Source: a virus
Lineage: Duplodnaviria; Caudoviricetes
DNA length: 64,000 nucleotides
Strand: one strand, 5' to 3'
IMG/VR virus record: IMGVR_UViG_3300023235_001725
The translations under genes and the position numbers were made by a program. Below are positions 52,452 to 60,675 of the stretch, one piece after another. The notes under the pieces were generated by a model. That model worked only from the letters and a program-made list of their open reading frames with translations, searched no databases and was not told the origin of the DNA. Each line of letters begins with the position of its first letter. Position 1 is the first letter of the stretch.

Positions 52452-52523
52452 TCTACAAATGTAATCAATTTTACAAATATAAAAACTGTTCGAAGGGCGG
52501 CCTTTTTCTATCTGTAATTCAAG

Positions 52524-52595
52524 AGGGGCGTAGGGGGTTCGAACCCCTGACGTACAGGGTTAAAGCCTGATGTTCTACCTCTGAACTAACGCCCC
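52524..52595 (-). tRNA. Putative ochre suppressor tRNA (anticodon TTA)
   Basis: GGGGCGT/ACGCCCC acceptor, U73, CAGG-CTTTAAC-CCTG with canonical 7-nt loop, T-loop TTCGAAC. Confidence 0.8.
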
Positions 52596-54090: not shown

Positions 54091-54480
54091 TTAAGTCTCT
54101 CCAACCATCCAAAAAGGAGATGTTAAGCTTGAGATTGTTCCGCCTGGTGCAAGTTGGTCATACATGTGCATGATGTGTTTGCAATCGACATTGTCTCGAA
54201 AGTTAGGACAGGCAATGACGTAATCATATGGTGTCTGGGCTTCGAATCGGAAGAAGTCTGAGCCAACCAACTCATATTCTTTTTCTTTCAGTGTGACTCG
54301 GCATTCTTGATTAAGTTCTACACAGTCAATTTTACACTGTTGGAATTTTTCTTGAACCCCGTCCGCCAATACTCCTGTGCCTGCAGATGGTTCTAGTATT
54401 CTCGCTCCAGGCTTCGGGTTTAATCTCTCACATAAAGCATCAATCACCACTTGGGGTGTAATTCTGTTTGTCTCTACCAT
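54091..54480 (-). CDS. Short class I SAM-dependent methyltransferase-like protein
   Basis: ILEPSAGTG, DCVELN, DF; CPNF in place of NPPF. Confidence 0.7.
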   Translation of the reverse strand: MVETNRITPQVVIDALCERLNPKPGARILEPSAGTGVLADGVQEKFQQCKIDCVELNQECRVTLKEKEYELVGSDFFRFEAQTPYDYVIACPNFRDNVDCKHIMHMYDQLAPGGTISSLTSPFWMVGET

Positions 54481-54502: not shown

Positions 54503-54593
54503 TGGTGAACGGAATAGGAATCGAACCTACAACTTTTCTTATGGCCGCTAAGCCATCTAGTTTTGCGCCTTCCATCCTTTTAAGTACTCGTTC
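54503..54593 (-). ncRNA. Degenerate tRNA-like RNA, CCA encoded
   Basis: Acceptor GAACGAG/TCCGTTC-A-CCA and T-arm GTAGG-TTCGATT-CCTAT; no canonical anticodon arm. Confidence 0.55.
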
Positions 54594-54686: not shown

Positions 54687-54746
54687 ATGTGGGGGAAGTT
54701 GTTTATGAGAACAGCGCCTCCCCAAGCATCTCACTGCTCATTATAA

Positions 54747-54913
54747 TGGTCCCGCGAGAGGGTTCTGCCCCCCATCATTTCTTCAACATCAACTACTAAC
54801 TCACTCTTGTGGCCACGCAAGTGAGTTTTTGTGTTTGCATCCCGAACTGAGTCCTTTCGGTTCGTCTTCCACATTATCAGTGTGGTGCTTTAACATATCT
54901 AAGCTATCGCAGG
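54747..54913 (-). ncRNA. tRNA-Ile(GAT)-like RNA with about 90-nt insertion in variable region, CCA encoded
   Basis: CCTGCGA/TCGCGGG acceptor, CCACA-CTGATAA-TGTGG, insert with TTGCGTGGCCACAAG hairpin, degenerate T-loop. Confidence 0.65.
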
Positions 54914-54919
54914 AAATTG

Positions 54920-55062
54920 TCCTGGAGGAAGGGCTCGAACCCCCGACCCCCACCGTTCGATTCCAATTCTCTACTTCACAACCCTTGTGGCCACGCAGGT
55001 TGCGTTTCAATCCTTTTCCTCATTTATCAGGGTGGTGCTCTAACCAACTGAGCTACTCCAGG
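54920..55062 (-). ncRNA. tRNA-Ile(GAT) with about 70-nt insertion in the anticodon loop
   Basis: CCTGGAG/CTCCAGG, canonical D and T arms, CCACC-CTGATAA-[insert]-GGTGG; insert contains CTGCGTGGCCACAAG. Confidence 0.7.
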
Positions 55063-55112: not shown

Positions 55113-55192
55113 TGGTGGTGAGGGAAGGACTTGAACCTTCGACCTCCAGGGTTTTAAAGCCTGGTGCTCTGAACCAACTGAGCTACCTCACC
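55113..55192 (-). tRNA. Non-canonical tRNA with 9-nt anticodon loop (CTTTAAAAC), CCA encoded
   Basis: GGTGAGG/CCTCACC, canonical D/T arms, CCAGG-CTTTAAAAC-CCTGG. Confidence 0.7.
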
Positions 55193-55296: not shown

Positions 55297-55332
55297 TTTT
55301 TTAAATTCCAACACGTCAATGAACTTTTGTTG

Positions 55333-55406
55333 TGACAGGAGAAAGATTCGAACTCTCGTCCCCAGGTTTTTAAGGCCTGGTGCTCTAACCGCTGAGCTAT
55401 CCCGTC
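55333..55406 (-). tRNA. Non-canonical tRNA with 9-nt anticodon loop (CCTTAAAAA)
   Basis: GACGGGA/TCCTGTC, CCAGG-CCTTAAAAA-CCTGG, T-loop TTCGAAT. Confidence 0.7.
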
Positions 55407-55455
55407 TGGTGGCGGATTCAGGACTTTAACCTGAACTGGTGCTTATGCATCCGCC
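55407..55455 (-). ncRNA. Mini-tRNA type B, CCA encoded
   Basis: GGCGGAT/ATCCGCC-A-CCA, connector GCATAAGCACCAGT, arm TCAGG-TTAAAGT-CCTGA. Confidence 0.68.
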
Positions 55456-55459
55456 GTAG

Positions 55460-55527: not shown

Positions 55528-55947
55528 TCATGCGGCTTCTTTACAATTACAACTCTTGAGAGTTGGTTGATTCGTAAATTCTTTGAAAGCAAGTGGTAGA
55601 CTAGATAACCAACGGGCAGATTCTTTCCCTGGTTCTACGGTAATAGACGTGAACTGGTTGTCGAGGTCAGGCTCCTGGAAGGAACTGAAATTAATACCTT
55701 TTTGCGTGAGTTTGTCTCGGAGCTCGATGAGTTCTTGCTCGTCTTTGACTGATAAGAATCCTAAATATGGATTCGATAACCATTTTTCATAAATGGCTGT
55801 GTATTCTTGATTGAATACGTGGAATGAATGCATTCCTTGAGTTGCCTGCGCTCCAGGAGCGAGGTCTCGTCTTACGACGATGTAAAGCTTTAAGTTTTTC
55901 TTCTCTGTAGAAGGGTGTACTTACTGGTTGTCTAATGCTTTTTTCAT
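55528..55947 (-). CDS. Pth2-like peptidyl-tRNA hydrolase with in-frame TAA at codon 9
   Basis: MKKALDNQ*VHPSTEKKNLKLYIVVRRDLAPGAQATQGMH...LSVKDEQEL...FQEPDL; no ATG/GTG/TTG between TAA (55921-55923) and the YIVVRRDL motif. Confidence 0.7.
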
Positions 55948-58891: not shown

Positions 58892-59062
58892 AAAGAAGAA
58901 TACTCTACATCGATGTAAAAGTAAAGAAAACCCTGCCAAAATTAATCGACAGGGTTTTCTAAAAGCTTTTAATCCTTGTGTGACCTAAGTGATTGGCATC
59001 CACCCGTAGGTGAACCGATGTGTTTTTCGGGGATACACGTTTGCCACAAGTACTATTATCCC

Positions 59063-60583
59063 TTATTCCTTAGTTGCAAGCTCAGCAAAATCAACATAAT
59101 TGTTGATAGTGTTGATAAGCGCTCTTTTGTCGACTTCTAGATTGTCAATGACATCAAAAATCTTTTCAGAGAATCCTCTTAGCGCGAATACGTTCTTCTC
59201 TGGGAACTGCATGCTTCCGCTTGCAGCCAAGTTGAACTCGTAAACTTTACAGTCCTGAGCACCGTACTTCTTCTTGTACGCTGCAAACTGAGTTTTTGGA
59301 GTATTGTACTCCATCCACGCTTGCATGTCCGAGAAGATGAATACACGGTCGTATTTCGCCTTCATCTTAACGAAGATGTCTTGGAAGTTCGTTCCGTGAC
59401 CAACCCTGTACTTGCCAACGTTGCCGTAGCCTTGGTTTGTATCAACAATCCAGTTTGCCATACCCATTACTGAGTCATTCACGTTAACTGGAAGGTACAT
59501 TGCGTGTGTTCCAAACGACATTACATCAGCATCACTAGCCTTGGCCATCATGGCTCCAAATAGAGCTGCCACTTTATTCCTGTAAGTTTTACCTCCAGCA
59601 ATTGGGCAATCCATAGAACCTGACAGGTCAATTACGACTGCAGTGTTTCCATCAAACTTTGGAATGTTAGAACAAGCTAGGTCTACGGCGGTGTTAAGCG
59701 CTCTTTGAACTTTCTTAGACTTTGTTCCAGTCAACACTGTAATCTCGTCGAGTGCAGTGATGTATCTGAATGGAAGAATCAGTGACTTCTTAATTCTTGC
59801 CTCTGTAGTCAACAGCTCGCATGCCTTGTTAAGAACCTCGTCAGAAGCATCTTGGATGATGTTTCTAAGGTTTCTTAGAAGAGCAAACTGTCCAATCTTA
59901 CCTGACATAACCAAGTCAGACCAAGCCTCAGCTTTGTTTGCGGCTTTCTCCTCAGAGGTCTTCGCTCCCTGGCCAGCTGCGGACAGCTTAGACTCGAAAG
60001 TGTTTTCACTCTTTAGGGTTCCAGCAACAAGCTCGGCAAGTGCCTTCTCGTTTCTAGCCGTTCCTTTTGGACGAACCAAGTTTACAACGTCAACAAGCGA
60101 TACTTCATTCTTGTCTCCTCTGTACTTGGCAAGCTGGTATGCATCGAACTTTCCGAAAGCTTTCTTGAAACCTTTCTTTAGCGCGTTTGGCAAAGATGCT
60201 TTCTTACCCTCTCTACCGAAGTAGTAGGACATAATCTCAGTCATGTCGTCTGGACGACGTACAATAGCTGCGTAAAACTCTTTAGCCCAGGCCTTACCTG
60301 AGGCGTGCTTAGCGATTTCACCCGCAAGTACGTGGGTGATAGAACGCATTCCAAACTCGTTACGGGCATAGACAGCCGCCTTTGCTGCGAACTCTGGGTC
60401 CACTTTGCTAAGAACGGATGTCAACTCCTTTATTTGGTCTCCTGCCTTCGAATAGAAGTCATCAGACACAAACGAGTTCAACAGAATCGTCACAAGCTCT
60501 AACTCTGGAGTCGACTTATAAGCCTCTCCTCCCGCTTTGTTGGTAGTCATTTCTACCTTTGATTTTTCGTTAAATTTTGACAT
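59063..60583 (-). CDS. TROVE-domain Ro60-like RNA-binding protein
   Basis: Start MSKFNEK; NKAGGEAY, ARNEFGMRS, FDAYQLAKYR, ALLRNLRN, vWA DLSGSM, FSDMQ, GFSEKIF. Confidence 0.95.
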   Translation of the reverse strand: MSKFNEKSKVEMTTNKAGGEAYKSTPELELVTILLNSFVSDDFYSKAGDQIKELTSVLSKVDPEFAAKAAVYARNEFGMRSITHVLAGEIAKHASGKAWAKEFYAAIVRRPDDMTEIMSYYFGREGKKASLPNALKKGFKKAFGKFDAYQLAKYRGDKNEVSLVDVVNLVRPKGTARNEKALAELVAGTLKSENTFESKLSAAGQGAKTSEEKAANKAEAWSDLVMSGKIGQFALLRNLRNIIQDASDEVLNKACELLTTEARIKKSLILPFRYITALDEITVLTGTKSKKVQRALNTAVDLACSNIPKFDGNTAVVIDLSGSMDCPIAGGKTYRNKVAALFGAMMAKASDADVMSFGTHAMYLPVNVNDSVMGMANWIVDTNQGYGNVGKYRVGHGTNFQDIFVKMKAKYDRVFIFSDMQAWMEYNTPKTQFAAYKKKYGAQDCKVYEFNLAASGSMQFPEKNVFALRGFSEKIFDVIDNLEVDKRALINTINNYVDFAELATKE

Positions 60584-60635
60584 CTCGTCGTTGTTTATAA
60601 TTGTTGTTATTCTATTAATTCTTTGTTTTTGGCGC

Positions 60636-60675
60636 ATAAAAAAAAAGCACCACATCTTTGCAGAGGGTGCTTTTT
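60636..60675 (-). terminator. Terminator-like hairpin between Y-like RNAs and the TROVE start
   Basis: AAAAAGCACC...GGTGCTTTTT with U-run on minus strand. Confidence 0.55.

Follow-up and report, generated by a model that had tools for sequence, protein, structure and literature searches.

Does a phage tRNA gene that carries a structured insert give rise to a tRNA from which the insert has been removed, or to an RNA that keeps it? This question is raised by a locus in a 64,000-nucleotide stretch of viral DNA (IMG/VR virus record IMGVR_UViG_3300023235_001725; the whole stretch is referred to below as the window), which appears to belong to a giant salt-lake phage with a bacterial host. The minus strand of the window encodes two tandem genes derived from tRNA-Ile(GAU), separated by a gap of 6 nucleotides (nt), and each interrupted by an insert that displays the same hairpin at a different site. 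To our knowledge, self-splicing introns are the only interruptions of tRNA genes in bacteria and phages, and few natural RNAs combine a tRNA body with another functional module (tmRNA, YrlA and viral tRNA-like ends); our literature search found no description of genes such as these. The pair of tRNA-Ile-derived RNAs with a shared structured arm is real, conserved and unusual, and we estimate at roughly one in two the probability that the arms stay in the RNA, i.e., that the products would be tRNA-Ile-shaped carriers displaying a partner-binding or dimerising arm. The features under study are the following.

54920 to 55062, minus strand: tRNA-Ile(GAU) gene #1, including its insert (Rfam tRNA, 49.9 bits; ARAGORN with introns allowed).
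54955 to 55023, minus strand: insert of gene #1, 69 nt, placed after the anticodon loop CUGAUAA and before the anticodon stem's 3′ strand (ARAGORN, alignment).
54969 to 55011, minus strand: module copy 1, with a GAA/AGUA internal loop, a helix of 8-9 base pairs, a GC/AA loop, a G-C pair and UGGCCA (54988-54993) (alignments; model R1, 59.2 bits).
54747 to 54913, minus strand: tRNA-Ile(GAU)-derived gene #2, including its insert and an encoded CCA (manual parse, alignment, consensus fold, in-silico removal).
54773 to 54861, minus strand: insert of gene #2, 89 nt, which interrupts the T-stem's 5′ strand between nt 50 and 51 (covariation, manual parse).
54791 to 54833, minus strand: module copy 2, with an AAA/AGUA internal loop, a 9-base-pair helix, a GC/AA loop, a G-C pair and UGGCCA (54810-54815) (alignments; model R1, 55.8 bits).

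The two genes lie in a run of minus-strand RNA genes flanked by a gene for a Pth2-like protein (55528-55833) and a gene for a small methyltransferase (54091-54480), and relatives of the locus were reached through homologues of these two flanking proteins, on metagenomic contigs from salt lakes and other sources. Two of these contigs are nearly the same as the window, and approximately eight diverged relatives, in which the flanking proteins are 65-86% identical, carry the tandem pair or part of it: L180/L181, L182, L183, L184 (#1 only, where the contig ends), L209-L212, L217 (#2 only, partial), L218 and L219. The order of the pair is constant in these relatives, with a spacer of 5-10 nt; on L219, the contig that has diverged furthest, the pair stands by itself, immediately upstream of the methyltransferase gene. 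A search of the window and the relatives' loci with a covariance model built from the module gave exactly two hits at each locus, always in the tandem Ile pair, and nothing else there down to E = 10 except for one weak antisense echo of a known copy. The sequence-only reading of this DNA had named conservation of the motif elsewhere as a check on its proposals; the module is present in every relative found, an outcome that favours the finding as regards the motif. Scans of IMG/VR with the 14-mer common to the inserts, and with CUGAUAA plus the loop, returned chance or coding matches only; a longer module pattern matched nothing in IMG/VR and gave 7 chance matches without stems in GTDB genomes; the 5′ exon pattern of gene #1 had no match in IMG/VR; and the sole match to the conserved intron-tail pattern was an unrelated coding gene. 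When the locus was compared by BLAST with the INPHARED phages, the neighbouring tRNA-Leu was the only match.

Gene #1 passes the Rfam tRNA model (RF00005) with 49.9 bits against a gathering threshold of 29, with a 70-nt gap after the anticodon loop, and ARAGORN in its intron-permitting mode identifies it as tRNA-Ile(GAU), CUGAUAA being followed by a 69-nt insert. An insert of about 70 nt after the anticodon, at position 37/38, had been proposed earlier; the length and the site hold, with the border also writable as 38/39. The gene has canonical acceptor, D and T arms and a canonical elbow (D-loop G18G19 with T-loop UUCRANY), and it encodes no CCA. Our alignment of eight homologues showed that 96% of the cells of the cloverleaf are paired and that 20 pairs contain double changes; 0 of 500 shuffles were as good, and in a slid-partner control the pairing fell to 41-50%. 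The anticodon stem closes around the insert, with 100% of cells paired and 3 covarying pairs, and the insert itself folds as an irregular rod, in which the initial UGAN pairs with NUCG near the insert end. One lineage is built differently: in L209 (1283-1422, identical in L210-L212) the 3′ end of the insert is a second anticodon half-stem and loop (CCCAC-UUGAUA-GUGGG), a duplication that re-forms a nearly intact anticodon hairpin, with the module effectively placed between the D and anticodon arms, so that in this lineage it can be read at position 26/27.

Gene #2 is missed by ARAGORN and scores 21.4 bits with RF00005, below the 29-bit threshold and over a partial, alternative alignment. Our manual parse gives a 7-base-pair acceptor stem, U8-A9, a D arm, an anticodon arm (CCACA-CUGAUAA-UGUGG) and a 5-nt variable loop, followed by GA, the 89-nt insert, a degenerate T arm (GGG-GGCAGAA-CCCUC), the 3′ strand of the acceptor stem, A73 and CCA, and the acceptor, D and anticodon stems covary among homologues. 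The two nucleotides that precede the insert pair with T-stem nt 64-65, one pair being G-C throughout and the other (50-64) A-U, G.U or U-A, and because this pairing covaries we place the insert between T-stem nt 50 and 51. The sequence-only reading had put it in the variable region, which our analysis does not support, whereas its length estimate of about 90 nt was accurate. Five lineages have 111 nt, and a sixth has 110 nt, between the variable loop and the T-stem end, a region that contains the insert, and once the insert is removed in silico ARAGORN calls tRNA-Ile(GAU) in 6 of 7 lineages, the window's own copy being the one that is not called. Besides the module, the window-type insert (type A) contains a mini-hairpin, CC-GAAA-GG, that is invariant, and a closing helix in which compensatory changes arose twice independently; in L180 and L183 the insert (type B) has a different lower part, closed by an 8-base-pair helix. 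Gene #2 of these same two contigs (L180, 5749-5923; L183, 1899-2070) contains two inserts, i.e., the T-stem arm with the module and a 19-22-nt hairpin in the anticodon loop after CUGAUAC. This second insert is without the UGGCCA core in L180, and in L183 its short hairpin contains UGGCCA by chance, with the rest of the module absent.

The loops of gene #2 are also altered. In the window the D loop is without GG and the T loop reads GGCAGAA, and the canonical elbow is absent from gene #2 of the window, L182, L209 and L217 (no D-loop GG, T loop NGCARUA) and kept in L218, L219, L180 and L183. The altered loops, common to four lineages, represent a conserved change and not random decay. CCA is encoded in gene #2 of exactly the window, L182, L209 and L217, and is not encoded in the four lineages with a normal elbow. 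CCA addition depends on the tRNA elbow, and the way in which CCA encoding tracks elbow loss fits this dependence and suggests that the 3′ end of the #2 RNA matters, although the match represents few independent events because the lineages are related. Gene #2 is conserved, yet not a canonical decoder. The loss of the D-loop GG and the T-loop UUC in the window, together with the failure of standard tRNA finders to detect this gene, could also be taken as the mark of tRNA pseudogenes in decay, into which a small selfish element has inserted. We give this explanation very little credence: the pair, its order, the insert lengths and the altered loops are conserved across lineages that have diverged to the extent given above for the neighbouring proteins, the helices covary, and no copies of such an element beyond chance were found elsewhere in the window, the relatives' loci, IMG/VR or GTDB.

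What do the two inserts have in common? The 14-mer TGCGTGGCCACAAG/UGCGUGGCCACAAG occurs exactly twice in the 64 kilobases (kb), once per insert (chance for a repeated 14-mer <0.001), and the homology between the inserts reaches approximately 40 nt including flanks, well past the 14-mer, which bears out the earlier claim that two tRNA-Ile(GAU) genes carry the same hairpin at different sites. An almost gap-free alignment of 16 insert cores from 9 lineages showed that the module consists, from its base upward, of a short lower helix, a 3x4 internal loop, a helix of 8-9 pairs, a GC/AA loop, a G-C pair and a UGGCCA hexaloop. The 3-nt side of the internal loop is GAA in five #1 copies and in the #2 copy of L217, AAA mostly in #2 copies, and CAA once; the 4-nt side is AGUA, replaced by AUUA in 2 and ACUA in 1 of the 16. 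In one copy the GC/AA loop is AA/AA, and the loop-closing G-C pair is A-U in L219 #1 and G/A in L184. The UGGCCA hexaloop and the unpaired A19, A50, U52 and A53 are invariant in 16 of 16 modules. Compensatory double changes are present in 9 of the 11 pairs of the module helix, with a covariation score of 0.64 against 0.27 in shuffles (0 of 500 as high), although these shuffle statistics overstate independence, since common descent and duplication link the 16 copies. In minimum free energy the genes do no better than shuffles (z from -0.7 to 0.1), so that the structural support comes from covariation and not from thermodynamics. In gene #1, conservation is 83% in the exons, 85.5% in the module and 69% in the rest of the insert; in type A gene #2 it is 74% in the exons, 77% in the insert and 79% in the module. 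The module is thus at least as conserved as the tRNA body, and it is under selection as RNA.

Another explanation would be that the hairpins serve only at the level of the precursor or the DNA, with no part to play in a mature RNA: they could mark the polycistronic tRNA transcript for processing or decay, or terminate antisense transcription. On the plus strand the two hairpins (54806-54821 and 54984-54999) do resemble intrinsic terminators, because the 5′ flank on the RNA strand is A-rich, and the array is densely packed with processed RNAs. However, a terminator or a nuclease entry site needs neither an invariant loop nor an invariant unpaired A, U and A, nor covarying tRNA stems around it, no plus-strand gene lies upstream of the terminator-like hairpins, and the U-tract of copy 1 would be poor as a terminator, and we regard this explanation as highly improbable.

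The internal loop of the module fits a known RNA motif. All 16 modules have the sarcin-ricin sequence pattern, i.e., A-(G/U/C)-U-A opposite (G/A/C)-A-A with flanking pairs present. The sarcin-ricin motif of rRNAs, RNase P and riboswitches is reported to tolerate A-A in place of A-G as the upper sheared pair and, in mesophiles, U or C in place of the bulged G (PMC8450098). With its 4x3 loop of AGUA opposite GAA or AAA, its flanking helices and the same tolerated substitutions, the internal loop fits a putative sarcin-ricin (bulged-G) S-turn, its size, sequence and variants agreeing with the reported tolerance (PMC8450098). Unlike the known contexts of the motif, the arm lies inside a tRNA gene, and the motif is assigned here from sequence alone.

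The hexaloop is self-complementary, which has a prior of 1/64 for a 6-nt loop core, and where the loop GUGGCCAC is changed to AUGGCCAU in L219 #1 an 8-nt palindrome is kept. The predicted loop-loop duplex has -9 kcal/mol for 6 base pairs and -14.5 for 8. The loops of the HIV-1 dimerisation initiation site (DIS) and of phi29 pRNA are kissing-loop dimerisation hairpins, and the module resembles such hairpins in its 6-nt self-complementary core, in its flanking unpaired purines or A's, and in the presence of the same loop in two RNAs of one operon. In contrast to these established cases the dimer is here a predicted one, and a protein partner would explain the invariance of the loop equally well.

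Other roles for the module were considered and rejected. Mimicry of rRNA received no support from a small test in four bacterial genomes with unchecked rRNA operon content, in which model R1 found nothing better than E ~0.6. The phage's CRISPR repeat is unrelated to the hairpin, which speaks against a CRISPR/Cas6 link, and K-turn and T-box-like readings of the flanks do not fit the sequences by inspection. A restriction-site role for TGGCCA finds no support either, the site being neither avoided nor enriched in the window (11 seen, 8.4 expected). As a separate observation on restriction sites, CCGG and TGATCA do not occur in the window, where 92 and 20 copies are expected from base composition, and CGGCCG and TCCGGA are likewise at zero, which looks like strong restriction-site avoidance.

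Are the inserts introns? The sequence-only reading had offered two explanations, a tRNA scaffold displaying a binding hairpin and protein-dependent splicing in a phage, of which the first fits our evidence best and the second is neither borne out nor refuted. Two further statements of that reading are correct: the inserts fall short of the length of a group I intron, and an RNA ligase is encoded. Group I introns occur in the anticodon loops of bacterial and phage tRNAs, have a P1-P9 core and need approximately 200 nt or more. Gene #1, though not gene #2, resembles their hosts in having an insert in the anticodon loop of a bacterial-type tRNA gene, but the inserts of 69 and 89 nt have no match to the P3-P9 core, and a search of Rfam at E up to 10 returned no intron or ribozyme family matching them. 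Small ribozymes (hammerhead-like CUGAUAA...GAAAC, twister, pistol and hatchet) were rejected on the same search, the core G8 being absent as well.

The hallmark of protein-spliced tRNA introns is the motif called bulge-helix-bulge, or BHB (PMC4090602). A permissive script for BHB, hBH and HBh′ motifs, run on 16 sequences (8+8 homologues of the two genes), gave scattered chance candidates, none at the insert borders and none conserved, and in a manual check of the window and L180, nt 32-35 do not pair with the intron tail in the canonical way. No splicing endonuclease (EndA/Sen) and no RtcB was identified among the 45 open reading frames of the window that were scanned with Pfam or PHROGs. The RNA ligase is an ATP-dependent enzyme of the DRB0094 type (a nick sealer), encoded 23 kb from the pair, beside other tRNA genes. 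The module is located at 38/39 in gene #1, at 50/51 in gene #2 and, as readable, at 26/27 in the L209 lineage, and its distance to the insert border is approximately 16 nt on each side in gene #1, approximately 46 and 22 nt in type A gene #2, and different again in type B. Because this distance varies, from ~16 to 46 nt, a ruler-type cut guided by the module is unlikely.

A natural comparison is with the tRNA introns of archaea, which are 11-129 nt long, are not self-splicing, and lie beside the anticodon loop and within the T arm, some genes having two, with canonical and non-canonical sites occupied and several introns per tRNA (PMC4090602). The phage inserts resemble them in being short and in that related insert sequences occur at different tRNA positions. 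They differ from these introns, which depend on BHB and EndA, in having no conserved BHB, an apparently bacterial host, conservation at the level of the exons and an elaborate conserved fold. This conservation pattern runs counter to that of a usual intron.

The inserts could still be true introns, removed through an undescribed protein-dependent pathway (an endonuclease followed by phage RNA repair or ligation) with the module as the recognition handle, to yield a functional tRNA-Ile(GAU). The encoded ligase would suit such a pathway, as would the restored tRNA-Ile call in most lineages of gene #2 and the range of sites used by archaeal introns. Set against it are the absence of conserved BHB, hBH or HBh′ motifs with cuts at the borders, the enzymes not found among the 45 scanned reading frames of the window, the 23 kb that separate the ligase from the pair, the variable distance from module to border, and insert conservation equal to that of the exons. 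In addition, the spliced product of the window's gene #2 would be an elbow-less tRNA that ARAGORN misses, and the second insert of gene #2 has no module in either L180 or L183. On balance we consider splicing unlikely, while giving it some weight. The wider claim that would follow, i.e., that the phage runs its own protein-dependent tRNA splicing, with neither BHB nor ribozyme and of a sort that has no known example in bacteria or their viruses, with the arm as the common handle for inserts in the anticodon loop, the T-stem and, in one lineage, at 26/27, is in our view doubtful to a slightly greater degree.

Several observations weigh against retention of the arm. Removal of the #1 insert restores a canonical anticodon loop and stem, i.e., a textbook tRNA-Ile(GAU), and with the insert retained gene #1 cannot decode, which leaves the strict conservation of its anticodon loop to be explained in some other way. 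Covariation of the stems across both inserts would be expected of a spliced intron as well. Our enzyme search covered 64 kb of this genome, and lengths of up to 447 kb occur among contigs that encode the neighbouring Pth2-like protein. With respect to the arm itself, the loop GUGGCCAA of L184 breaks the outer pair of the palindrome, and the S-turn was assigned from the letters of the sequence only.

Nevertheless, retention of the arm fits best with the observations set out above: the module is as conserved as the tRNA body, its invariant unpaired bases fit a protein- or RNA-docking motif, the border distances vary, and gene #2 is conserved though non-canonical. We infer that both genes may yield stable tRNA-Ile-shaped RNAs in which the inserts are retained. 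The tRNA body would serve as a carrier, providing processing signals, nuclease resistance and a 3′ end (with CCA either added or, in lineages without the elbow, encoded), and it would keep a tRNA-Ile face, i.e., the anticodon loop U33-GAU-R37 and A73. The working part would be a rigid arm made of the sarcin-ricin-type S-turn, a helix of near-fixed length and the UGGCCA hexaloop. Most likely this arm would dock one putative partner that reads both the S-turn and the loop, a suggestion that comes from the near-fixed spacing between these two elements. Alternatively, a kissing-loop contact might join the two RNAs, which is possible because the loop is self-complementary and is carried by two co-transcribed RNAs.

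A rival reading turns on a protein encoded close by. A Ro60 homologue (59063-60655, minus strand; Pfam TROVE, 1e-25; PHROG, 1e-51) lies 4 kb upstream of the pair on the same strand, and the module could in principle be a Ro60 (TROVE) binding site, with the two RNAs as the phage's tRNA-like Y RNAs, analogous to YrlA. Bacterial Y RNAs combine a Ro60 site with a tRNA-like domain, and the synteny of Ro60 and the pair is kept in L180. YrlA RNAs, which also occur in phages, resemble the pair in joining a tRNA-like domain to a partner-binding module within ~4 kb of Ro60 on the same strand, a neighbourhood rule to which the pair conforms (PMC4201824). However, YrlA is a permuted tRNA mimic without an anticodon arm, whose ends form the Ro60 site (PMC4201824), whereas in the phage pair the topology, the ends and the anticodon loop are those of a normal tRNA. 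Neither gene is matched by the Rfam YrlA model (RF02553, threshold 69 bits), whose best match in the window is 22.3 bits at 55353-55457, and the 5′ motif GNCGAAN0-1G has only near-matches (GACGAACC and ACCGAAAG) in the type A insert of gene #2 and is absent from type B and from gene #1. A better Y RNA candidate, conserved in L180, is present directly after the Ro60 stop codon, and we judge it improbable that the pair fills this role.

The candidate in question is a structured RNA of ~90 nt (58968-59063, minus strand; L180, 2577-2668), which follows the stop codon of the Ro60/TROVE gene, is itself followed by an intrinsic terminator, and is ~90% identical in L180. It has GNCAAACG near its 5′ end, is missed by the Rfam YrlA model, and is likely to be a Y RNA of the phage Ro60. 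A pairing between the module loop and this RNA was considered and rejected, since the 8-nt complementarity is not kept in L180 and lies in the RNA's own helix. The best match to the YrlA model (55353-55457, minus strand, far below threshold) covers a mini-tRNA and two thirds, from the 5′ end, of a tRNA-Leu whose anticodon loop has 9 nt, and here ACGGCGGAUGCAU and AAAAACCUG resemble conserved YrlA strands.

The array around the pair contains further reshaped tRNAs, i.e., two tRNAs with 9-nt anticodon loops and cut-down tRNA-like genes, and the neighbourhood also encodes an Acb3 CBASS inhibitor and an ADP-ribosyltransferase domain in addition to Ro60. Both tRNAs with 9-nt loops (CUUUAAAAC and CCUUAAAAA) are called Leu(UAA) (55113-55192 and 55332-55406, minus strand), and they lie near a suppressor tRNA gene with a UUA anticodon at 52523-52595. 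A third tRNA-like gene (54506-54593, minus strand; 23 bits with Rfam tRNA) has an encoded CCA, and its anticodon arm is replaced by the hairpin AUGGC-UUAGCG-GCCAU-AAG, for which relatives have GUGAC...GUCAC-AAG; the stem of this hairpin resembles the apical GUGGCCAC-AAG of the shared module. Directly 3′ of gene #2 (54700-54746, minus strand), a conserved AUUAUAAU box is followed by the hairpins AGCA...UGCU and GGGGAAG...CUUCCCC, all kept in relatives, and this region may be a promoter-like or processing element inside the array.

This setting, with its reshaped tRNAs, Pth2-like protein, methyltransferase, Ro60 and anti-defence genes, suggests a role for the pair in the phage-host contest over tRNAs. 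If the arms are retained, the RNAs might, for instance, act as a bait or sponge that draws off a factor directed against anticodon loops like that of tRNA-Ile. For example, Cas13b cuts the anticodon loops of GNN tRNAs around U33 (preprint, PMC13692257). It is conceivable that these tRNA-Ile(GAU) look-alikes act as a bait or sponge against tRNA-cleaving immunity of this kind, which we offer only as a lead.

Whatever becomes of the inserts, this phage lineage keeps two tRNA-Ile bodies that show one sequence-invariant arm at different graft points. In the tRNA scaffold of Ponchon and Dardel, a foreign structured RNA is reportedly grafted into the anticodon arm for cellular processing and stabilisation, and the layout of gene #1 matches this design; the scaffold is artificial, whereas the phage pair would be a natural, conserved case with the T-stem as its other graft site. 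Should the arm be excised, the pair would represent a new splicing system. If it is retained, the pair would be a natural counterpart of the laboratory tRNA scaffold, and it would offer a handle on the dealings of a giant phage with host factors that recognise tRNA-Ile, e.g., those of tRNA-cleaving immunity.

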